Of a stretch of DNA of 52,632 nucleotides, positions 3,001 to 45,425 are shown piece after piece. The position numbers were made by a program, and so were the translations under genes. Below the pieces are notes generated by a model. That model saw only the letters and a program-made list of their open reading frames with translations, was not told the DNA's origin and made no database searches. The stretch is taken from IMG/VR virus record IMGVR_UViG_3300021091_004136, positions 1 through 52,632 of that record. One strand, 5' to 3'. How positions within the stretch are numbered: the stretch's first letter is position 1; the number at the start of each line of letters is the position of its first letter. Origin of the DNA: a virus. Its lineage: Duplodnaviria > Caudoviricetes.

Positions 3001-5275
3001 TAGCACTAAAAAATCTATTACTGATGCTACGGGTAGTATGTATTTTGATGGGACCGGGGATTATTTAACGTCTCCATTAAATCAAGCATTTTTATTTAGC
3101 ACCAATGACTTTACAGTTGAACTATGGTATTACCCATTGGCATTGACAGGAACTCCTGGAAATAATCAGTCTCTTGTAGGTATGTGGGGTCCAAGTTCTA
3201 GCAATATTAGTTGGCTTTTTTATCTTACTTCTGGAAATTTATACTGGTACACGTCTACAAATGGGTCAACCCAAACTGCAACAATGAGTGCTGCTTCTGG
3301 AATGTCTGTAAATACTTGGTATCATCTTGCTCTTTGCCGCAGTAATGGTACAACAAGAATATTTGTTAATGGCACGTCAATAGTAAGTACGACTACTTCA
3401 GTAAATTTGTTTAATGCAACGTGCCCGCTAACAATTGGCTACAACCCTGCTGGTGGTACACCAGATTATGCTTATGGACATATGCAAGACCTACGCATTA
3501 CTAAGTTCGCCCGCTACACAGGTACTTTTACTCCACCAACTCGCACATTTAGTGCAACTGTACGAGACATTGGCCACAAGCAGTGGGTGGCAAATAACTT
3601 TAGTGTAGCTAGTGGTGTTGGCAATGATAGCCTTGTAGATACGCCAACCAGTTATGGTACTGATACTGGTTTAGGTGGTGAGGTGCGGGGGAATTATTGT
3701 ACACTAAATCCACTTTGGTTAAGCAGTTCGGCTCCTACGCTCACAAACGGCAATCTCGATACGACTGCTACTAATTCAACGTGGAATAACGTACAAGCAA
3801 CATTTGGTATCTCTTCAGGCAAGTGGTACTGGGAGTCTACAATGTCGGGAGATATGTTCTTCCAACTCGGGGTCGGACTTCGAGACGCAATTAACAATGC
3901 GTATGGTGGGAGTGACACAAATTCCTGGACCTACGACGGCCGTGCGTTCAAGGTTGGCAACGGATCCCAGCCAGCATACGGGGCTACGTTTGCAGGCGGG
4001 GACGTAATGGGCGTTGCTCTTGATATGGATGCCGGAACGCTCACGTTCTACAAGAACGGTGCCTCTCAAGGAGTGGCATTCTCGTCGGGGTTGGCTGGCA
4101 AGACTGTCTTTCCGCAGTTTGGCTGCTATCAAGCCGGAAGATCGCAGTCGGTCAATTTCGGCCAACGCCCATTTGCCTATAGTGCACCTACTGGCTATAA
4201 GGCACTGTGCACACAAAACTTGCCTACACCTAGCATAGTTAAATCTAATACAGCTTTTGATGCCGTAACCTATATAGGTAATGGCAGTACGCAAACAATT
4301 AGTACCTTAAATTTCAATCCAGATTTAGTATGGATTAAGCGTCGAGATGCTTCTGGTCAAGACCATGTTTTACAAGATGTTGTTCGCGGATTTACATCCG
4401 ACACTAAATTATCGTCTAGTAGTACTGCTGCTGAAAATAATACTGGAGGTGGCGTAACTGATCCACAATGGGGGTATGTATCCGCAGCTACTAATACAGG
4501 TTTCACAACTACTGTAGGATCAGGAACAGGAGATCAAACTAATCGTAGTACTTGGTCTTATGTTGCCTGGAACTGGGATGCTGGAACTAGTACAGTAACT
4601 AATACTGCCGGATCTATTCAAAGTAATGTTAGAGCCAATACCACAGCTGGATTTAGTATTGTAACATGGACATATAATGGTGCAGCTACAATTGGTCATG
4701 GATTAAATGCAGTTCCAAAATTTATGATTATACGTGGTAGAAATGCTGTATATAATTGGGACGTATATCACGCATCAATTGGAGCCACTGTTAGGCTAAT
4801 GTTAAATAGTACAGCTGCCACACAGACTCAAACTGGACCATTTAACAACACAACACCTACATCTACTGTATTCTCTCAAGGTCCCTCCTGGTATAATAAC
4901 GGTGAACTTTTGGTAGGTTATATTTTTGCAGAAGTTGCCGGATACAGTTCTATTGGTAGTTATACTGGTAATGGTAGTGCAGATGGTCCATTTGTTTATT
5001 GCGGATTCAAACCCAAATTTATAATATTAAAAGCATCTAGTGTAGCTGCTACTAATTGGCAAATCAATGATACTGCAAGAGATACTTTTAACGTAGCAAA
5101 TAAGCGGTTATCCCCTAGTGCCGTTGATGCTGAAGCTACAAACTATAATTTTGGTGATATTCTTAGCAATGGTTTTAAAATACGACAAACCGATCAAACT
5201 TGGAACAGCAGTGGTCAAACTTATGTTTACGCAGCTTTTGCCGAAAACCCATTTAAATATAGCCTAGCGAGGTAA
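2..5275 (+). CDS. Giant tail fibre/receptor-binding protein, 5'-truncated: tandem LamG/ConA-like domains, a SPRY domain and a C-terminal domain
   Basis: The frame is open from base 2 (DANPSYYISGYLADFQLIDG...), so the gene starts before the window. Five LamG-type units (FT[IV]ExWxY...W[TNHY]HxAxxR...[LI][YF][VT][ND]G...[NSD][ILF]R[IV]xK) are followed by a SPRY-like segment (SSGKWYWE...GVALDMDAGTLTFYKNG). Confidence 0.85.
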   Translation, partial: DANPSYYISGYLADFQLIDGQQLTPSSFGETDLTTGIWKPKAYTGSYGTNGFYLPFTDNSTTANLGVNTAQTVDELRNYTTLHLSGNPSATSGYNCFSDRSSNAHLLSASGEVVTSGRTPFSSDTTSGSAYFNNSSYLTIPHNSVLNFDTGQFTIETWVYPTVANTYHTVIGKWASLNQDNWLVTINNNALLFYYNGGSLTGGTVSVNVWTHIAVSRNSSNVITLYVNGTAVATTTSAFNSGYTYQTEIGSYAGGINKFTGYISNIRVVKGQALFTGAFTPSTSPLTTTTVGHTGAGAASSITGTVSLLTLVDKVGANNSGFIDDSANSAVITRSGNVTQGSFSPFGTSGWAMYQSDISGNYPSFTTSASTTFQFTGNFTVEGWVYPIIYSGTGDTSLWVTGGGSTYLALNYDGSGNYNIYLNSGVPTSTFASGITANTWNHVAMVRSGSTITLYTNGISRGTIQNSSTLGHANPTLARIGGGVASCSRYVSNLRIVKGAAVYSSNFIPSTDPLTAISGTVLLTCQDNRFVDNSSNNFTVTFTGTPQTQPLSPFLSHASTTKTYSNFFDGSNDSALIAYNAAFDLAASDFTIEGWIYTGDSSSNYPSIVGRWQGSGTACWDLRPRSTDRGNFLIFVYTTNGSTALFVDSNGPALSDNAWHHVVAVRSSSNFALFVDGTRRNTANFSGITIFNSASAPLNIGYDPWGTTYFSGYISNLRIVKGTAVYDPTLPTLSVPTAPLTAVTGTSLLTCQSNTFIDNSTNNFTITVNDTPRCTEFNPLGRTFTTGVNYLASTHGSSAYFDGTTDYLDVPSNAYWNFGDGSNFTIECWAYTPTAASSSYNIFSNSGTNSSGYTTGYIYPDGRVAIGKAGINEISSAAGKWPVSQWNHIAFVRSGSNLTIYVNGISIATTASASTYLNNATAALSIGRNYQTSISYLTGYVSSFRILKGTALYTSNFVPPMQPPQAVANTQLLLNFNNAGVVDYSGKNVLETVGDSRSVTSTKKSITDATGSMYFDGTGDYLTSPLNQAFLFSTNDFTVELWYYPLALTGTPGNNQSLVGMWGPSSSNISWLFYLTSGNLYWYTSTNGSTQTATMSAASGMSVNTWYHLALCRSNGTTRIFVNGTSIVSTTTSVNLFNATCPLTIGYNPAGGTPDYAYGHMQDLRITKFARYTGTFTPPTRTFSATVRDIGHKQWVANNFSVASGVGNDSLVDTPTSYGTDTGLGGEVRGNYCTLNPLWLSSSAPTLTNGNLDTTATNSTWNNVQATFGISSGKWYWESTMSGDMFFQLGVGLRDAINNAYGGSDTNSWTYDGRAFKVGNGSQPAYGATFAGGDVMGVALDMDAGTLTFYKNGASQGVAFSSGLAGKTVFPQFGCYQAGRSQSVNFGQRPFAYSAPTGYKALCTQNLPTPSIVKSNTAFDAVTYIGNGSTQTISTLNFNPDLVWIKRRDASGQDHVLQDVVRGFTSDTKLSSSSTAAENNTGGGVTDPQWGYVSAATNTGFTTTVGSGTGDQTNRSTWSYVAWNWDAGTSTVTNTAGSIQSNVRANTTAGFSIVTWTYNGAATIGHGLNAVPKFMIIRGRNAVYNWDVYHASIGATVRLMLNSTAATQTQTGPFNNTTPTSTVFSQGPSWYNNGELLVGYIFAEVAGYSSIGSYTGNGSADGPFVYCGFKPKFIILKASSVAATNWQINDTARDTFNVANKRLSPSAVDAEATNYNFGDILSNGFKIRQTDQTWNSSGQTYVYAAFAENPFKYSLAR

Positions 5276-30003: not shown

Positions 30004-30753
30004 TTAAGCAGCTTTAGCTTCTGCTTTTGCGCGTTTTGCAGCGCCATCATAATCAGCAACTTTAATTCCGCGACGTGTTAATAGGGTTTTAAGACCTCGT
30101 TCTGTTTTATCAACAGCCGCAGCGATTTCTGCAACTGTCATGCTATGAATTTTAGCTCCAAGCTGATTAACAGGATCGACATTTTCTTTGGCATAACTAT
30201 TCTTTTGCGCAGGAATTTTTGCAATTTGACCTTTACGAGTAAGGCTAAGAGCCTTACCGCGAACACTAGCAACAGTTTTGCCTAGTGCTGTTGCGATGTC
30301 TTCGATAAATGCGCCTTGTTCTGCCATAGTAACAAATTCATGTTCTTCGGCATCAGTATAAGTACGAGCAACTTCTACTTTTTCAGCGGGTTTAACACTA
30401 CCAGTTAGTTCAAGAGCTAATAATTTGCCTTGAATTTGTTTAGCAGTAAATTTTCCATCCATAAACTGTTCAGCAATTTGTTTATAGGTAAGTTCGTTTG
30501 AATTATTAATTACGAACTCAGCAAGTTCAGCACCCTCATCCTCAGTAAATGCACTAGTTTTTTCTTTAGCCATACTAGCAACTTCTACTTCAAGTTGACG
30601 AAGTTTACTAGCTACGCTACGTGCTGTAAAATCTGGGCCAAGTGTCTCCGCAGTATGTGCAACAGTACTGGCACTAACCGGACGGTGATCACCAACAAGT
30701 TTCATAAGTTGATCAACAGTAGCGTCAGACCATTTTTTAGCTTTTTCAGTCAT
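30004..30753 (-). CDS. D5: T5 D5-like DNA-binding/transcription regulator
   Basis: Repeated HTH-like units (RSVASKLR, KQIQGKLLALEL, SVRGKALSL, RGLKTLLTRRG); located downstream of the split ligase. Confidence 0.88.
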   Translation of the reverse strand: MTEKAKKWSDATVDQLMKLVGDHRPVSASTVAHTAETLGPDFTARSVASKLRQLEVEVASMAKEKTSAFTEDEGAELAEFVINNSNELTYKQIAEQFMDGKFTAKQIQGKLLALELTGSVKPAEKVEVARTYTDAEEHEFVTMAEQGAFIEDIATALGKTVASVRGKALSLTRKGQIAKIPAQKNSYAKENVDPVNQLGAKIHSMTVAEIAAAVDKTERGLKTLLTRRGIKVADYDGAAKRAKAEAKAA

Positions 30754-31504
30754 TTATATTTTCTCTTAGAAAGATATTTAAGTTTTTGATAATTTTAATG
30801 CCGAGTGTATCGGCTTTTTTACGTTTTGTACTACCTTTATCTTCTTCGTCAACTAAATAATCCGTAGTTTTACTTACACTTTCGCTGATACGAAATCCGT
30901 ATTTTTGTAGTTGTGTATAGGCTTCGGTTTTGGTTTTATAAGAAGATAATTTACCAGTAATACACACTACTGGACCAGAAGCATGTGTTATAGGTATTTT
31001 GCTAAGAAATGAAAAAGGTAAGAACTCTCTTATTTCTTTAAAATCTATCTCAAGCCAATTTAAGAGATTTTGTGTTACTTTATCTCCTAATCCAGCTTGC
31101 TTGCAGGTTTTTTGATTAATTTCATCTATATTATTAACAGTATTTGCAATTTTTGTACTAGCAGTATTACCTACTAGTGGAATACTAAAACTGGCTAATA
31201 CCTGATTGAGTGGGGCACTACGACTTTTATCAATTTCTACAAGGAGTTTTTCTGCTGTTTTTATACTTCCTAATAGGTTACTAACTTCATTAAGTTCTAA
31301 ATAATATAATTCGGTTATGTCGCCTAATCCTAGTTTTTCAATAGTTTTTGCACCCATACCCTTTATGTTCATTGTTTTACAAAAGTGTTCTACACGCTTG
31401 CTTAACTGAGCATCACAAGCTTGATTGCGACAAAACAACTGATCATTAACCAGTTCTAGTTTGTAGTTGCAACAAGGACAATGTGTGGGTATTTCAATTT
31501 TCAT
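30746..31504 (-). CDS. ligB: NAD-dependent DNA ligase subunit B (Zn finger, HhH, BRCT)
   Basis: PTHCPCC...LFCRN..C, IKGMGAKTI, and VCITGKL...VSKTTDYLV BRCT. Confidence 0.9.
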   Translation of the reverse strand: MKIEIPTHCPCCNYKLELVNDQLFCRNQACDAQLSKRVEHFCKTMNIKGMGAKTIEKLGLGDITELYYLELNEVSNLLGSIKTAEKLLVEIDKSRSAPLNQVLASFSIPLVGNTASTKIANTVNNIDEINQKTCKQAGLGDKVTQNLLNWLEIDFKEIREFLPFSFLSKIPITHASGPVVCITGKLSSYKTKTEAYTQLQKYGFRISESVSKTTDYLVDEEDKGSTKRKKADTLGIKIIKNLNIFLRENIND

Positions 31505-31589: not shown

Positions 31590-32546
31590 TTAAGCATCAA
31601 CCTTGTGTAGTATACATGGAATGATTTCTCCAGCTCTAGCAACTGCTACTATGTCGCCAATCTGTAGGTCTAGTGCTTCTATAAAGCCGGGGTTGTTGAG
31701 TGTAGCGCGGCTAATTGTAGCGTCTCCTATTTTAACTGGTTCTAGAATAGCTGTCGGTGTTACTTTACCAGTTTTACCAACATTCCACTCTACATCTAGT
31801 AATTTAGTTTCTACATATTGTGCACGTTCTTTACGAGCATATGCACCACGAGGATGTTTACTAGTATAACCTAGTTGTTCAAATTGATAATTATTTTCTA
31901 GTCTAATTACTATGCCATCACTAGGATATATTTTATAAAGTTCTGGTTCTAGTACAGTATTGAAACCAAGTTGTTTTAACACATTCATATCACCTGACCA
32001 AGTCGGATCTAGATTTGGTGTTATTTGATAGGCAAAGAACTCGATTGCGCGGGTTTTGAATTCCGATAGGTCTTTTAGATTAAGCGATCCTGCTGCATAG
32101 TTTCGACTATTTTCTATATGCAGTGGGGCTACAATCTCACCAGTAATTTGTACAGTTACATTTTTAAGATCAACAGTAAGTGGTACTAATTTACCGTGTT
32201 CATACATTTTATCTGTAATAATCTGACCTTCTATACCATCACCGCGAGTAAGTGCTTGCACTAGGATGCCGTCTACGTATAGTAGGCTAATTGCTGCGCC
32301 GTCTAACTTTATACTAGTAGTAATGTCTAAACCCGCTAACGGATCTAATTTGCCGTCATCTTCATAGTATTTTTGCAAGCTATACATTTGATATAAATGC
32401 TTACCTTTTTTACCATGTACGGGTGCGCCTAGTTTGTTATAGCCGCAACCCATTGCTAATTCATCAAACACATAGTCTGGAATAGTAGGCGTACCGGCAT
32501 AATAGTCGTGACTGGCTTTATCTAAAAATTTATGTAATTTATTCAT
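31590..32546 (-). CDS. ligA: NAD-dependent DNA ligase subunit A (adenylation + OB domains)
   Basis: YY.G.P.I.D..FD, MYSLQK, KLDG, TRGDG, DGIV, VGKTGKVTP, RATLNN and AGEIIP motifs. Confidence 0.93.
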   Translation of the reverse strand: MNKLHKFLDKASHDYYAGTPTIPDYVFDELAMGCGYNKLGAPVHGKKGKHLYQMYSLQKYYEDDGKLDPLAGLDITTSIKLDGAAISLLYVDGILVQALTRGDGIEGQIITDKMYEHGKLVPLTVDLKNVTVQITGEIVAPLHIENSRNYAAGSLNLKDLSEFKTRAIEFFAYQITPNLDPTWSGDMNVLKQLGFNTVLEPELYKIYPSDGIVIRLENNYQFEQLGYTSKHPRGAYARKERAQYVETKLLDVEWNVGKTGKVTPTAILEPVKIGDATISRATLNNPGFIEALDLQIGDIVAVARAGEIIPCILHKVDA

Positions 32547-38294: not shown

Positions 38295-39521
38295 TTATTG
38301 ATTTATAATATTAGTTAGTTTTTTGGCAGTGGCAGCACTTAGAGTCCAACCTAAGTGTCCGTGTCCAGTGTGATAAAAAACTTTTTTATTAAACTTGCTC
38401 TGACTAATGATAGGTAACATATTAGGTGTCATAGGTCTAAGGCAAGCCCAGCTGTCATAGCGTTCTGTGTTGACCTTAGGTAAATTAGTATTGACCCAAT
38501 CAACCAATGGTTTAATTCTGTCTTCTCTTATTTCATAATCGTCGCCAGTAATTTCTGCTGTGCCTGCTATTCTCAACCTATCACCTAACTTAGTACAGAC
38601 TATTTTTTTATCCTGATCAAGAACACTAATATTTGGACTGTTAGCCATACCTACACTATCTAATGGTATAGTAATGCTGTATCCTTTAACAGGATAAACT
38701 GGGTGACAGTCTCCAACTTGTTTGCTTAGATGCCTAACTCCAGCGCCGTTGGCCAATACAATACAATCATAATCGTAAAGATCATCAACATCTTTAATTA
38801 GTTTGTTGAATTCATACTTTACACCATACTTACTCACTAACTTATTGAACAACTGATTACAAAATTTATGAATATCACCAGTCCAATCTGTATAACAAAC
38901 AGCAGCACCTGTTACACCTTGTATTTCAGCTACAGCAGGATTAGTCTCTTTTAAATCTTCAAATTTTCCTATATTTCTATTAAAGAACTTATACTCTTTA
39001 GAGTTGGCTAAAATAGTAAAATCGCAGCCATTCCATTCGTATAATTCTTGAGTTTTAAGGGCTGATTTAAACCAATCTTGATCTCTATATAGATGTAAAA
39101 TACCTGCACGTAATTGATCAAATTCTATTTGTTCTTCTAAAACTATTTCGTCATATAATTGCCTAGACTCCAACCCTAATCTTATTGTATAAGTAGTATT
39201 ACGTTCGTAACTGTTTGCGGCTGTATGGTAAAGAAATTTAAGCAGCCATTTAGCCTTATCTAGATCAAGACTAGGCCTGATCAATAAAGGGGCGTCCTTC
39301 TTGGCTAACCATTGCAGTCCTTTGAATACATTACGCCAGGTTGTCCAAACTTCGCTATTACTTACACTGATCTGTCCTGCATTGGCATAACTACACTGTT
39401 CAGCAGGACCTGATTCAGAATCAAATATGGTTACAGCATGACCAGATTTTGTCAGATAATAGGCACTAGTAATGCCAGCTATACCGGCTCCTACGACACA
39501 AATATTCATATTTAGTTCCAC
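38295..39521 (-). CDS. dadA: D-amino acid dehydrogenase-like FAD oxidoreductase
   Basis: VVGAGIAGITSAYYL, SYANAGQIS, YPVKGYSIT, RLRIAGTAE, WACLRPMTP and TGHGHLGWTLS motifs. Confidence 0.9.
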   Translation of the reverse strand: MELNMNICVVGAGIAGITSAYYLTKSGHAVTIFDSESGPAEQCSYANAGQISVSNSEVWTTWRNVFKGLQWLAKKDAPLLIRPSLDLDKAKWLLKFLYHTAANSYERNTTYTIRLGLESRQLYDEIVLEEQIEFDQLRAGILHLYRDQDWFKSALKTQELYEWNGCDFTILANSKEYKFFNRNIGKFEDLKETNPAVAEIQGVTGAAVCYTDWTGDIHKFCNQLFNKLVSKYGVKYEFNKLIKDVDDLYDYDCIVLANGAGVRHLSKQVGDCHPVYPVKGYSITIPLDSVGMANSPNISVLDQDKKIVCTKLGDRLRIAGTAEITGDDYEIREDRIKPLVDWVNTNLPKVNTERYDSWACLRPMTPNMLPIISQSKFNKKVFYHTGHGHLGWTLSAATAKKLTNIINQ

Positions 39522-39707: not shown

Positions 39708-39783
<76 letters not shown>

Positions 39784-40071: not shown

Positions 40072-40154
40072 TATGTTCCTTTGTTAATTAGTAAATTAGA
40101 TAAATTTAAGTCTACATGCTTAAATACATATTTTTTATACAGCTATTGTTTGTT

Positions 40155-40495
40155 GTAATGACGGTTGTTGGCTAATAAGGTCAACCGTCAAAACCCCAGC
40201 CTAGCTTATGCAGCTAAGGCAAATACCTCATCGTTGGCATTTATTTGATTTGCTTCTTTTACGGAGATCGCCTACCGAGTTGTCCACTGCAATACTATTT
40301 ACTCCGTCGAATCTAAATCGAGCCCATCAAAAGTACACTAACGTATAAGTTTGCAACCTTATACTAACCCGCGGAAGCTGTACCGGTATAAGTCCGCATA
40401 TATGTATTAAGTGGCAGTGTACTTTTGGTGGACCCGGCGAGGAACTGCCCCCCGCGTCCGCAGTACGTTTCTATTAGTTTCATACAACTATAACT
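40155..40495 (-). ncRNA. ssrA: Circularly permuted (two-piece) tmRNA: acceptor piece ~40495-40426, intervening segment 40425-40326, coding piece 40325-~40155; tag ANDEVFALAA
   Basis: The 3' end ...GGAC-T arm-CGGGUCC-A-CCA lies upstream of the 5' end GGGCUCG-AUUUAGAUUCGAC. The acceptor stem has G3:U70 and A73. Resume context AAAUAAAU|GCC precedes the tag ORF at 40238-40206. Confidence 0.92.
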
Positions 40496-40570
40496 TGGTG
40501 CTGAATATCAGATTCGAACGGATGACCTACCGCTTACAAGGCGGTTGCTCTACCACTGAGCTAATTCAGC
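40496..40570 (-). tRNA. tRNA-Thr (TGT)
   Basis: Cloverleaf with anticodon loop CTTGTAA and encoded CCA. Confidence 0.95.
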
Positions 40571-41013: not shown

Positions 41014-41098
41014 TGGTAGGGAAGACCGGAGTCGAACCGGTACGCTTTTCAGCGACAGATTTTAAGTCTGTTGTGTCTACCTGTTTCACCACATCCCC
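41014..41098 (-). tRNA. tRNA-Leu (TAA)
   Basis: Long variable arm, anticodon loop CTTAAAA and encoded CCA. Confidence 0.94.
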
Positions 41099-42101: not shown

Positions 42102-42290
42102 TTATACTACATCTTTCCTGGCTTTTTCTTGCCTGGTTTTTTCATTGGCTTGTATCCCATTCCCATTTTTCATATCCTCCTTAGCATAAATAGCTCGTTC
42201 AGCGGCTTCACAAGCACCTAGTGTGTCAAACTGGCAATTACCGCGTTTGCCGTATTTATATTTACCATTGCTACATTTATAACATGGCAT
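42102..42290 (-). CDS. Small Cys-containing hypothetical protein
   Basis: MPCYKCSNGKYKYG...C......C; coupled to the upstream gene. Confidence 0.6.
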   Translation of the reverse strand: MPCYKCSNGKYKYGKRGNCQFDTLGACEAAERAIYAKEDMKNGNGIQANEKTRQEKARKDVV

Positions 42291-42604
42291 TATAATGCTT
42301 CTATTTTTGTTAACGTACTTACCTTATGCCCTACAATTGTGTCTGTAGGTTTATACTTGCCACTATCATCTGGTCTATAAACACGAATTAGTGCACCTGG
42401 ATCTTCCTTAGTACCAGTAATCTTAAAGCTACTTCCTGGTACGTCAGCACTACCACTAGTAATTATTCTTGTGACTTTACCGCGTGCTGTACCACCACTT
42501 GAATTCCAGCTAACACTATCACCTCGTTTTACACTACCGGCCTTAGCTTTACTTAGTGCGCCTAGTATGCCATTATAAAACTCTAGCTCATATAATTTAT
42601 CCAT
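42290..42604 (-). CDS. DUF2945/HVA1-like (Tudor/SH3-like) domain protein
   Basis: GD.VSWNSSGG.ARGKV...GT.EDP...VGHK.STL.K. Confidence 0.6.
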   Translation of the reverse strand: MDKLYELEFYNGILGALSKAKAGSVKRGDSVSWNSSGGTARGKVTRIITSGSADVPGSSFKITGTKEDPGALIRVYRPDDSGKYKPTDTIVGHKVSTLTKIEAL

Positions 42605-42614
42605 ATTGATTCCT

Positions 42615-42805
42615 TTATATTGTGGTGTTTTTTGTTTACTGCCTGGGCCGCTAAGCCCGTGCCCTAAACTTACACAACTTCATGACGGTTTGCTATACTT
42701 TAGGGTCAGACACGACTGTTAATTACTATTCCGGTCTTCACCAACAGTGGACTCTGCAAGGAGCCGATATTGTTTCGACTACGAGCAAAAAACACCACAA
42801 TATAA
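42615..42805 (-). ncRNA. Candidate structured non-coding RNA, family unassigned
   Basis: A perfect 20-bp terminal inverted repeat encloses at least four internal stems; no ORF in the track. Confidence 0.65.
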
Positions 42806-42826
42806 TTTATTTCTAAATTATATTTA

Positions 42827-43840
42827 CTACTGTATATAATCTTTTACAAATTTACTACTAGCAAGATTCTTTTGCTTGCTTTCACACATAATATCGGCCC
42901 ACTCATTATGACTAGCTGCCCACTCATTTACTCTGCGGTTCCAGTAGTAATCACTATGTGCTCGCAGTTTAGCTGATGTAAAACCCATGCCTGTAAGTAG
43001 TTTATAGTCGGGCAGTTCATCTGTGGCGTGTTCAACAAGCACATCTTCTCGGGATACTGAATAGTGTATAACAGGTCTAATACCTCGCCACGAATCTGTA
43101 ACCATTCTGATTCGTTCATCGTTTGGCTCAATATATTCTCCCTTACTATGTATCCAGTGATGATGTATGTCTAAGACAAGCGCACAGTGTTCTACCAACT
43201 CTAAGCTATGCTCTAGTCCCCACGTATATTCGGCATTTTCTATTGTTAATATATTACGCGCTTCAGGACTTAATTTTCTAATTGCTGCAATAATCCCTTG
43301 TGGACCGCGTTTGCCTCCAATATGAACATTGCATTTAAAATCTTGAAATTTCCTACCATAGCCCATATAGCGGGCGACGTCAGTATGATACTCGAACTCA
43401 GTAATACTATTATCAACAATTCCATCATTTTCACTCGCTAGTACACAAAATTGTCCTGGGTGGAATGATAGGCGTATGTCTTTACCACGAGCAATATCGC
43501 CTACTTTGCTAAGGTGTTTTTCTAAGTAGTTTACTACATCATTTTGAAAGTAGAACCACATCCAATCTTCGTGTGTATACGCTGGAAATAAATCACTACT
43601 AATTCTGAACTGACGCTGATCTCTAGGCAGGTTACCCACCCACTCTACCTGTCGCTTTAGTACATCACAGTTATGTTGTATAATAGTCCAAATCTTTTCT
43701 ACTGCTCTATCACGAGTTTGATTATTAAGCCATGTTAATGTTGTTGTAGTTGTATTTAATTTTTTGTCGGCTTTATCATGATCAGTTTGTATTTTGCAAG
43801 CAAAACCTACTCTATGTTGTGTTATATCAAAAGTATGCAT
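42827..43840 (-). CDS. uvsE: UV damage endonuclease (UVDE)
   Basis: GFAC, FRISSDLFP, RLSFHPGQF.VL.S, NVHIGG, LTIEN, VLDIHHH, HYS, RAHSDY and DIMCESK.K motifs. Confidence 0.93.
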   Translation of the reverse strand: MHTFDITQHRVGFACKIQTDHDKADKKLNTTTTTLTWLNNQTRDRAVEKIWTIIQHNCDVLKRQVEWVGNLPRDQRQFRISSDLFPAYTHEDWMWFYFQNDVVNYLEKHLSKVGDIARGKDIRLSFHPGQFCVLASENDGIVDNSITEFEYHTDVARYMGYGRKFQDFKCNVHIGGKRGPQGIIAAIRKLSPEARNILTIENAEYTWGLEHSLELVEHCALVLDIHHHWIHSKGEYIEPNDERIRMVTDSWRGIRPVIHYSVSREDVLVEHATDELPDYKLLTGMGFTSAKLRAHSDYYWNRRVNEWAASHNEWADIMCESKQKNLASSKFVKDYIQ

Positions 43841-44035: not shown

Positions 44036-44119
44036 TGGTGCCCTAGGAGAGACTCGAACTCCCACACCTTACGGTACTTGCTCCTAAAGCAAGCGTGGCT
44101 ACCATTTCACCACCAGGGC
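44036..44119 (-). tRNA. tRNA-Leu (TAG)
   Basis: Anticodon arm CTTGC-TTTAGGA-GCAAG, long variable arm and encoded CCA. Confidence 0.92.
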
Positions 44120-44578: not shown

Positions 44579-44794
44579 TTATAAGCCAATTAACTTAGCA
44601 CAATAATTGCATATAGGATTATCATCTAAGTCAGGTATTAACTTAGTTGTCCAAATGTCACAATGTGTACACTGATTTATATGCTTAGTTAATTCAACAA
44701 TATCTAAACTGCTCATATCTATGTCCAGTTCTTTACATACCATATAGAGTGATTTATGTGTATTGTTTAGATTGTTCTTTAATTTCGTGTACAT
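44579..44794 (-). CDS. Small zinc-finger protein
   Basis: CTHC...W...CNYC. Confidence 0.6.
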   Translation of the reverse strand: MYTKLKNNLNNTHKSLYMVCKELDIDMSSLDIVELTKHINQCTHCDIWTTKLIPDLDDNPICNYCAKLIGL

Positions 44795-45425
44795 CTACTT
44801 TATAACGATCATCCAAGTTTGGATGTGTTTTCTCAAATTCTAGTAAGAACATAATGCAACAGGCTGCATGTGCCAGATGTGATAAGCCAGATTCTGGATC
44901 TTTATCTTCACCATCGTTATAGGCCATAATATGTCGCATTGCCGCAGCTAGTGGTCGTGACCAGGCAAAACCATTTCGCCAATTGTGCGCATGATATTTA
45001 TTAGCACCAAATTTTAGCACTGCTGCTATTTGCAACATTGCTTCTGTACTCAATAAATTAACAGGTAGCTTGTCCGTATCAAATTTCATTCCATTACCAC
45101 CCGTACTACCGCCAGCGGTAGTCACCGTATTAGTAACGGTAATTTTATTCCAGTCAAAAGGAATATTTTGTGGACTAGGATCAGTATTTAAATTAATAGT
45201 AGGCCGCGCACCCCAGCCATCTAATTTAATTACATCATCTAAAAATAGTGGTTTGATGCTATCAAATGTATTACTACTAAATACCGCACCTTCATAGCCT
45301 GGATGGTATGGCGCCTCTTCAACTAATTTTTTAGCTTCTGGGGTGTTTGCAGGGACTATGGTGGTATTTGTATTAAAAAATAAATCTAACTCTTTTTGTT
45401 CAATAAATTCTTCGTGTTTGGGCAT
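44754..45425 (-). CDS. DUF5664 (dATP/dGTP diphosphohydrolase N-terminal-like) domain protein with N-terminal extension
   Basis: G.KFD..K....LL, VL.FGA.KY..HNW..G, AAMRH and D.ESGL.HLAHA.C motifs. Confidence 0.85.
   Translation of the reverse strand: MPKHEEFIEQKELDLFFNTNTTIVPANTPEAKKLVEEAPYHPGYEGAVFSSNTFDSIKPLFLDDVIKLDGWGARPTINLNTDPSPQNIPFDWNKITVTNTVTTAGGSTGGNGMKFDTDKLPVNLLSTEAMLQIAAVLKFGANKYHAHNWRNGFAWSRPLAAAMRHIMAYNDGEDKDPESGLSHLAHAACCIMFLLEFEKTHPNLDDRYKVDVHEIKEQSKQYT

Follow-up and report, generated by a model that had tools for sequence, protein, structure and literature searches.

A predicted non-coding RNA family from the tRNA region of T5-related phages carries two self-complementary apical loops suggestive of homo-oligomerisation

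We analysed a stretch of 52,632 nt, here called the window, covering positions 1 to 52,632 of the IMG/VR virus record IMGVR_UViG_3300021091_004136 (Caudoviricetes), and within it an element at 42615-42805 situated in a long leftward series of genes and flanked by the genes for a UvdE endonuclease and a 104-aa Hva1_TUDOR protein (Table 1). A preliminary description, made from the letters of the window, had proposed here a novel phage non-coding RNA read from the - strand, with a multi-branched fold closed by a perfect 20-bp stem, or else a cis-element controlling the ribosome-binding site that abuts this stem. The stem is indeed perfect: the two 20-nt arms of the inverted repeat are 100% complementary, lie 151 nt apart and close a multi-branched fold. 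Read as RNA, the - strand folds with -62.7 kcal/mol (z -4.90) and the + strand with -58.4 kcal/mol (z -4.13), none of 200 shuffles being equally stable in either case. The inner stems listed before, i.e. AGUCGA/UCGGCU, ACUGUUGGU/AUUAACAGU, CCCUAAA/UUUAGGG and GGGCU-UAGC-GGCCC, are all present in the minimum-free-energy fold of the - strand and agree with the covariation of the family described below, whereas the proposed CGUG/CACG extension did not hold up, being outside this fold and paired in 64.7% of 150 cells family-wide compared to approximately 94% for the consensus helices. The element is also GC-richer than its surroundings, as had been claimed, with a GC content of 0.429 (0.477 in its interior) compared to 0.351 for the window and mostly 0.18-0.35 for intergenic stretches without RNA genes. 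Its assignment to a tRNA region likewise stands, with three tRNA genes and a permuted transfer-messenger RNA (tmRNA) surrounding it; ARAGORN calls four tRNA genes in the window, one of them being part of the tmRNA, and none at 42615-42805.

Starting from the flanking proteins UvdE and Hva1_TUDOR we gathered 125 related IMG/VR loci, individual collected loci being labelled L###, and blastn detected the element at 80-85% identity in close relatives. A covariance model built from nine close relatives (R1) recovered the complete element, at 57-100 bits, from divergent contigs. Motif scans returned 22 IMG/VR stretches when the 5' junction motif was combined with the 3' domain and 39 for the 3' domain alone, with 16 of 16 new loci confirmed by covariance model, and the 3'-domain pattern applied to metagenomes returned 98 stretches, 80 of which were kept as loci and 77 of these confirmed by a second covariance model (R2). 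The family totals 89 distinct full-length sequences in related phage contigs of approximately 100 kb; of these, 44 share at least 80.5% identity with the window sequence, and the other 45 have diverged so far that blastn covers no more than a part of them. The single match of the 3' domain among 185,579 prokaryotic genomes, in a metagenome-assembled genome of a candidate phylum (L169), was confirmed by neither covariance model and is therefore regarded as a chance match. The family is restricted to a clade of freshwater phages of approximately 100 kb that are related to T5 (Demerecviridae).

Within this clade the element always occupies the same syntenic slot and is single-copy, the window record having one full-length copy and each of five near-complete relatives (approximately 100 kb; 5/5) exactly one. 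Four close relatives retain the Tudor gene, or both flanking genes, but have no RNA (L054, L057/L058 and L059). At L059 (approximately 3880-4000) just a remnant of the P1 3' arm is left next to a terminator-like hairpin, L054 (140-335) and L057/L058 (L057 2100-2745) have an open reading frame (ORF) where the RNA would be, and L012 (1639-1779) has an internal deletion of approximately 47 nt in the RNA.

Comparison with known RNAs supports the novelty of the family. Rfam 15 (4227 models) was scanned at the gathering threshold and at E<=10. No model reached its gathering score on the element in the window or in the loci of five relatives; at E<=10 the region 42500-42900 gave one chance-level match, located outside the element, and the divergent member L132 matched only eukaryotic small nucleolar RNA and untranslated-region (UTR) models at chance level (E 0.9-5). 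Sensitive blastn of the element against GenBank phages returned only chance matches of 24-32 nt (E ~8), and the sole match of the 1.7-kb neighbourhood in this set was the uvdE gene of Erwinia phage Y3. A keyword search of the literature in full text, not sequence-based and with supplements outside its reach, found no paper describing the family. The earlier proposal of a novel RNA without a known family is thus upheld by an 89-member covarying family that matches no Rfam family at either setting. Two other kinds of RNA were considered and rejected: for a retron msr-msd, RVT_1 is missing in the window record and four near-complete relatives (0/5) and the neighbours are UvdE and the Tudor protein; for a bacterial Y RNA (YrlA-like), TROVE and RtcB are each found in none of five near-complete relatives and Rfam gives no match. 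The idea of a link to RNA repair was dropped on the same findings.

The collected homologues reveal a well-defined secondary structure. In alignment A4 (32 distinct rows) 93.7% of 1784 cells are paired and in alignment A6 (80 distinct rows) 94.1% of 4324, percentages inflated by the fitting of both alignments to the covariance model, compared to 34-43% in a control with the partners slid by 1-3 columns. In both alignments 46 of the 57 pairs are compensatory, so that the covariation on which the RNA proposal depended is borne out across the family. Since these alignments are structure-fitted, MAFFT with RNAalifold was also run on 23 diverse members without model fitting. It predicted 44 pairs, of which 34 are compensatory, and recovered P1, P2, the base of P3, P4, P4a and P5. 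P1 stands out with 14 of 19 pairs compensatory, 95.7-96.5% of cells paired and an arm length of 19 nt that 72 of the 75 distinct members share; it has invariant positions, too.

The polarity follows from the same data. G-U or U-G combinations occupy 124 of 1063 cells and A-C or C-A combinations 13, extending to the whole family the earlier G-U argument for the - strand, and the opposite strand scores far lower in the covariance model (e.g. 213.6 versus 37.3 bits at L011); the RNA is therefore read from the - strand of the window, the direction of the neighbouring genes. An element acting at the DNA level, i.e. a miniature inverted-repeat transposable element (MITE), a cruciform, an origin or a recombination site, might be suggested by the perfect 20-bp inverted repeat, but its probability is close to negligible: the element is single-copy and syntenic, the tolerance of G-U is one-stranded and the covariation preserves helices, not sequence. 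A MITE in particular should be present in scattered copies with target-site duplications, an outcome named beforehand as fatal to the RNA proposal, and the copy number of one in the window and in each near-complete relative argues against it. The element is hence predicted from the pattern of base changes to be a gene for a non-coding RNA of approximately 185 nt, transcribed from the - strand and folding into a five-way junction of P1-P5 (Table 1).

Although their sequences diverge, the 75 distinct members hardly differ in the lengths of their segments. J2/3, J3/4 and J5/1 are equally long in all 75, and the loop centre lies 23-24 nt from the junction in P3 (75/75 members) and 20-22 nt from it in P4. 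All 80 distinct rows carry the motif CUUAGCGG in P5 unchanged. The invariant junction strands, together with the hairpin bearing CUUAGCGG, hint at an additional tertiary core or a binding site. We rejected a pseudoknot in which the GCU of J1/2 would pair with the AGC of the P5 loop, both sides being invariant and the variable J1/2 position changing without a change of its partner.

Table 1. Parts of the predicted RNA and further features of the window
Feature	Position	Strand	Remarks
P1 5' arm	42786..42805	-	20 bp in window, 19 bp in family model; perfect inverted repeat
J1/2, conserved (U)GCU(C/A)G	42779..42785	-	conserved columns; 7 nt in 68/75 members
P2, short hairpin with variable loop	42764..42778	-	3/4 pairs compensatory
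J2/3, ends in conserved UUG	42757..42763	-	conserved columns; 7 nt in 75/75 members
P3, long irregular hairpin	42707..42756	-	14/14 pairs compensatory
P3 apical-loop self-complementary core CCGG	42731..42734	-	6-10 nt palindromes in other clades
P4 + P4a hairpin, internal loop, conserved 3' UAA bulge	42664..42704	-	6/7 and 5/6 pairs compensatory
UCAUGA, self-complementary, in 9-nt P4a apical loop	42680..42685	-	fixed-column self-complementarity
P5 hairpin	42642..42663	-	stem covaries below invariant CUUAGCGG (42648-42655)
J5/1, part of conserved AGUAAAC	42635..42641	-	conserved columns; 6 nt in 75/75 members
P1 3' arm	42615..42634	-	inverted repeat; Tudor-gene AAGGA and ATG close behind
Hva1_TUDOR protein gene	42290-42604		104 aa; ATG at 42604
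UvdE endonuclease gene	42827-43840		
Inverted repeat, 11 nt	42799-42824		overlaps P1 5' end
tRNA gene	39708-39783		ARAGORN
tRNA gene	41014-41098		ARAGORN
tRNA gene	44036-44119		ARAGORN
Permuted two-piece tmRNA	40134-40552	-	Rfam tmRNA_permuted 115 bits, beta_tmRNA 87.6 bits
ARAGORN 'tRNA-Thr'	40496-40570		inside permuted tmRNA
NAD-dependent DNA ligase, first gene	30746-31504	-	split ligase
NAD-dependent DNA ligase, second gene	31590-32546	-	adjacent to first gene
FAD-dependent oxidoreductase	38295-39521	-	408 aa; DAO family, E 4.7e-52
Protein with dATP/dGTP diphosphohydrolase N-terminal domain	44754-45425	-	223 aa; PF18909, E 8.5e-36; PHROG dATP/dGTP pyrophosphohydrolase

Two of the apical loops are self-complementary throughout the family, a feature that the preliminary description had overlooked, as it had the place of the RNA within the tRNA arrays of relatives. 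The P3 loop contains a palindrome at one fixed alignment position in 75 of 75 distinct full-length members, with ten types occurring: CCGG (37 members), UCUAGA (12), UCCUAGGA (8), CCCGGG, CCUAGG and CACGUG (4 each), UUACUAGUAA (3) as well as UGUACA, UCCGGA and CUCGAG (1 each). The 9-nt P4a loop of the 75 members carries UCAUGA in 54, UAAUUA in 14, UCGCGA in 5 and an imperfect UCGAGA in 2, and in an earlier set of 32 distinct members every one has two self-complementary loops. Analysed in fixed columns, the inner two pairs of the P3 loop are complementary in all 152 cells, with one of the two composed of CG 70, AU 4 and UA 2 and the other of CG 48, UA 27 and GU 1; the third pair matches in 38 of 76 cells, and the remaining 38 all hold the A-A of the clade to which the window belongs. 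For the pairs of the P4a loop, 238 of 240 cells are complementary. Five of the six loop pairs are compensatory, and controls with slid columns reach 11-53%. In a tree calculated without the loop columns at least 12 changes of state fall on the P3 hexamer and at least 6 on the P4a hexamer, and the two loops vary independently of each other, resulting in 16 combinations. Non-complementary bases separate the palindromes from their stems. The P2 loop, used as a negative control, contains a 4-nt palindrome in 6 of the 75 members and none of 6 nt or longer.

Pairing of these palindromes must join two copies of the RNA, because bases that are adjacent or two apart cannot pair within one chain. The switching from one palindrome to another between lineages is the signature predicted for intermolecular kissing loops, and an apical palindrome covarying palindrome-to-palindrome, by which symmetric kissing loops are recognised, is found in P3 as well as in P4a. 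We therefore consider it probable, judging from the sequences, that the RNA acts as an assembly of identical copies, either a dimer or a higher homo-oligomer, joined through two symmetric kissing loops. The OLE dimer and the retroviral dimerisation initiation site similarly form a symmetric kissing loop from a palindrome in an apical loop, and the nine-base loop with a six-base palindrome of the HIV-1 site has the same layout as the P4a loop described here; in contrast to both systems, to which it has no sequence or structural kinship, the RNA of the window has two such loops on two arms. The palindrome-to-palindrome covariation of OLE L9.3 and GOLLD L21a matches the kissing loops observed by electron cryo-microscopy (cryo-EM), with OLE L9.3 alternating between palindromic tetranucleotides, according to Kretsch et al. 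(PMC12286853), who reasoned in the same way for these two loops.

A monomeric RNA acting in trans would offer another explanation for the loops, with the palindromes serving as sites for a dimeric protein or a symmetric nucleic-acid partner. The conserved junction core, the invariant CUUAGCGG hairpin and the invariant positions in P1 are in agreement with such a specific binding or active site. However, a fixed partner would freeze the loop sequence, yet at least nine palindromes occur in P3 and three in P4a, and the RNA has no conserved candidate protein beside it, its neighbours being tRNAs or varying small ORFs. A Pfam search of 20 flanking ORFs of divergent loci for a partner protein gave UvdE, a sub-threshold DUF3551 and one GlutR_dimer, none of which is suggestive. 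We consider this explanation unlikely.

If the RNA pairs with itself, two distinct two-fold interfaces would sit on two length-invariant arms. With the arms side by side this would lead to a head-to-head dimer with each loop bound to its counterpart, and with the arms diverging to a ring, a cage or a filament. A small self-assembling RNA of approximately 185 nt that goes beyond the simple dimer to a filament or to a closed ring or cage is a tentative proposal, which the arrangement of the loops allows and which we regard as less likely than not. By analogy with GOLLD, ROOL and manA, such an assembly could serve as a scaffold, container or decoy during infection.

While the family is new to Rfam 15, its kind is already known from phage tRNA-island RNAs such as GOLLD, ROOL and manA, which come nearest to it in their presumed way of acting. 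GOLLD and ROOL, too, are phage- or prophage-encoded and often near tRNA islands, and PMC12286853 describes them as homo-oligomers, seen as nanocages by cryo-EM, that are held partly by symmetric kissing loops. They differ from the RNA of the window in that GOLLD members are often longer than 800 nt, i.e. several-fold longer (PMC12286853); oligomerisation is deduced here from sequence, and the element of the window has no Rfam match even at E<=10. The manA RNA is closer in size, being shorter than 200 nt, is found in phages and forms closed 8-, 10- and 60-mers via kissing loops, according to bioRxiv 10.64898/2026.07.01.735769. In contrast to the RNA described here, in which each loop is self-complementary, manA pairs different loops (L5-L7', L8-L9'); it is described as a putative 5'-UTR element, and no Rfam model matches the present RNA.

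The genomic context in relatives suggests how the RNA might be released. In many of them arrays of at least 20 tRNA genes are present and the RNA is encoded in the array on the tRNA strand. Out of 37 IMG/VR loci, 17 have the end of tRNA-Pro(UGG) at -3 to +7 nt of the RNA 5' end and 12 have the start of tRNA-Leu(UAG) or tRNA-Ala(UGC) at -3 to +7 nt of the RNA 3' end; among 64 distinct metagenome members tRNA-Pro abuts in 16 and the 3' tRNA in 15. At the junctions of L141 and L139 the encoded CCA of tRNA-Pro is directly followed by P1, and P1 is directly followed by position +1 of the next tRNA, and the first two positions of the covariance model are the CA of the tRNA-Pro CCA. In tRNA operons RNase P cuts at the downstream tRNA and 3' maturation acts on the upstream tRNA. 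Release by tRNA processing is expected here because the tRNA-Pro CCA and the tRNA-Leu/Ala +1 directly adjoin the RNA: in array-bearing relatives, RNase P acting on the downstream tRNA would form the RNA 3' end exactly, the cut maturing the tRNA-Pro 3' end would also form the RNA 5' end, and the RNA would be excised together with the tRNAs and then accumulate.

In the clade of the window uvdE and the Tudor gene flank the RNA and the array is reduced to four ARAGORN-called tRNA genes, the tRNAs nearest to the window RNA being 1231 and 1517 nt away. With the array decayed, RNase III acting on P1 would be a possible route of release. The 19-bp P1 is compatible with RNase III, but the ancestral context favours release by tRNA-processing enzymes. 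In addition to the 11-nt inverted repeat overlapping the P1 5' end in the window, close relatives (L056, L060, L053 and others) have a GC-rich hairpin (GGCCUAC...GUAGGCC) immediately 5' of P1, and a hairpin at this boundary may be an alternative or protective structure where no tRNA adjoins. In a third clade (L150, L132, L142, L148, L065, L071) a conserved 76-aa ORF stops one base before P1; this ORF has no Pfam match, and downstream of the RNA there is a spacer of 136-237 nt.

Processing structures have a precedent in the RNase III sites between the genes of phage T7, and the element might be nothing else, i.e. an RNase III site or a stabilising structure in a polycistronic early transcript without a function as free RNA. 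P1 as a bulge-free helix of 19-20 bp and the long leftward gene series would fit, and the 21 nt that separate the uvdE stop from P1 contain no sigma-70-like promoter; such sites number 35 across the region compared to 32.6 expected from shuffles. A processing structure would, however, need neither the five-way junction nor the invariant junctions and CUUAGCGG, the fixed arm lengths and the covarying palindromes, and in the 17 of 37 loci in which the RNA ends are tRNA ends tRNA processing suffices. This makes the explanation improbable to our mind. A decoy in the tRNA array or a tRNA mimic that occupies a host tRNA enzyme or a defence nuclease would be compatible with oligomerisation and in agreement with the slot in the array at tRNA-like zero spacing and with a five-way junction as in class II tRNA. 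Arguing against it, neither ARAGORN nor the Rfam tRNA clan gives a call on the element, P1 has 19 bp instead of 7, the alignments contain no conserved motif resembling a T-loop or D-loop, and no 3' CCA follows P1; we judge a tRNA mimic to be very improbable.

The idea of a cis-element for the abutting ribosome-binding site has fared less well than that of a free RNA. In the window the Shine-Dalgarno-like AAGGA and the ATG of the Tudor-domain gene are located within 10 nt after the P1 3' arm, and in the window and nine close relatives a Shine-Dalgarno sequence and ATG lie within approximately 10 nt of P1, as would be expected for a leader or riboswitch controlling translation of the Tudor gene. 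This adjacency is confined to the close clade of the window, whereas elsewhere the downstream neighbour varies: the RNA is followed by a tRNA (12/37 loci), a spacer of 88-170 nt or unrelated small ORFs, and the Tudor gene is found 350-900 nt further downstream. Moreover, the Tudor gene occurs without the RNA in four close relatives, and no Rfam riboswitch matches. The losses of the RNA and its varying context argue against an obligatory role in cis and for a free-standing accessory RNA gene, leaving a cis-regulatory leader with a very slight probability.

Returning to the self-pairing RNA that we favour, several points weigh against it. Palindromes in a single loop are not rare in shuffles, with frequencies of 0.01-0.29 for 6-10-mers and 0.40-0.55 for CCGG, and because this chance is high the weight of the palindrome case lies in the recurrence at a fixed position across lineages. 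The P3 palindrome has merely 4 nt in the window's own clade, the P4a hexamer is imperfect in two members, and the pair percentages of the fitted alignments are inflated as stated above. The RNA being lost or truncated in L054, L057/L058, L059 and L012, it is dispensable there. The window has no tRNA flanking the RNA, so the processing route of the relatives may not apply to it, and transcription, RNA ends and stability are predicted throughout.

The RNAs closest in kind are annotated in the tRNA region of T5. The closest listed GenBank records are Demerecviridae with 48-50% DNA polymerase identity, T5 being the best-known member, and eight RNAs annotated as 'stable RNA with unknown functions' or as tRNA-like are located among the tRNA genes of T5 (NC_005859), the RNAs of the array being named RNA I-IV, 1, 2, 2H, 3 and X. 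The features of the T5 array RNAs, i.e. location in the array, the same strand and ends abutting tRNAs, are present in relatives, whereas in the window itself the nearest tRNAs are 1231 and 1517 nt away. RNA2H (31808-31979, corresponding to 6809-6980 of L174, - strand) resembles the family in being 172 nt long, in lying just 5' of tRNA-Ala(UGC) and tRNA-Leu(UAG) and in having a multi-branched minimum-free-energy fold closed by a helix of approximately 16 bp (-64.7 kcal/mol, z -3.0). Applied to the T5 tRNA region with filters off, R1 and R2 gave plain hairpins of up to 21 bits as their best matches and none of the annotated T5 RNAs, and R2 had no match in five whole Demerecviridae genomes. Since neither covariance model detects the T5 RNAs, RNA2H is a positional analogue, with homology not shown. 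Small stable RNAs co-transcribed and processed with phage tRNAs are also known from phage T4, i.e. species 1 and 2 RNAs.

The remaining gene content of the phage is T5-like as well, including a split NAD-dependent ligase, a D5-like regulator, SbcCD, PolA, a DnaB-like helicase and PhoH. The DNA ligase is encoded by two adjacent genes, and T5-like phages have their NAD-dependent DNA ligase likewise split. ARAGORN, applied to the loci of 20 relatives, detects the permuted tmRNA of the window in 11 of them, with tags such as ANDEVFALAA, ANDSQFALAA and ANDQVYALAA. The 223-aa protein with the dATP/dGTP diphosphohydrolase domain belongs to a type of enzyme, the dATP/dGTP pyrophosphohydrolases, that is linked to modified-base phage genomes. 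The FAD-dependent oxidoreductase, for which a role in tRNA modification is conceivable, is encoded directly next to tRNA-Gly, where the region of RNA genes borders on other genes.

As a summary, we describe a family of phage RNAs in which the loops are conserved just in their self-complementarity. Natural RNA-only assemblies have recently been seen for OLE, ROOL, GOLLD and manA, and the family would be a short and well-defined additional case. If the proposal of a ring, cage or filament is true, phage tRNA arrays would encode a compact RNA-only quaternary structure far smaller than GOLLD and ROOL. With 89 natural variants, a clean secondary structure and an exact slot in the tRNA arrays of relatives that predicts both RNA ends, the family is an easy target for in-vitro transcription, native gels, cryo-EM and loop swaps. 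Environmental relatives of T5 thus hold structured and conserved counterparts of the "stable RNAs of unknown function" in the T5 tRNA region.

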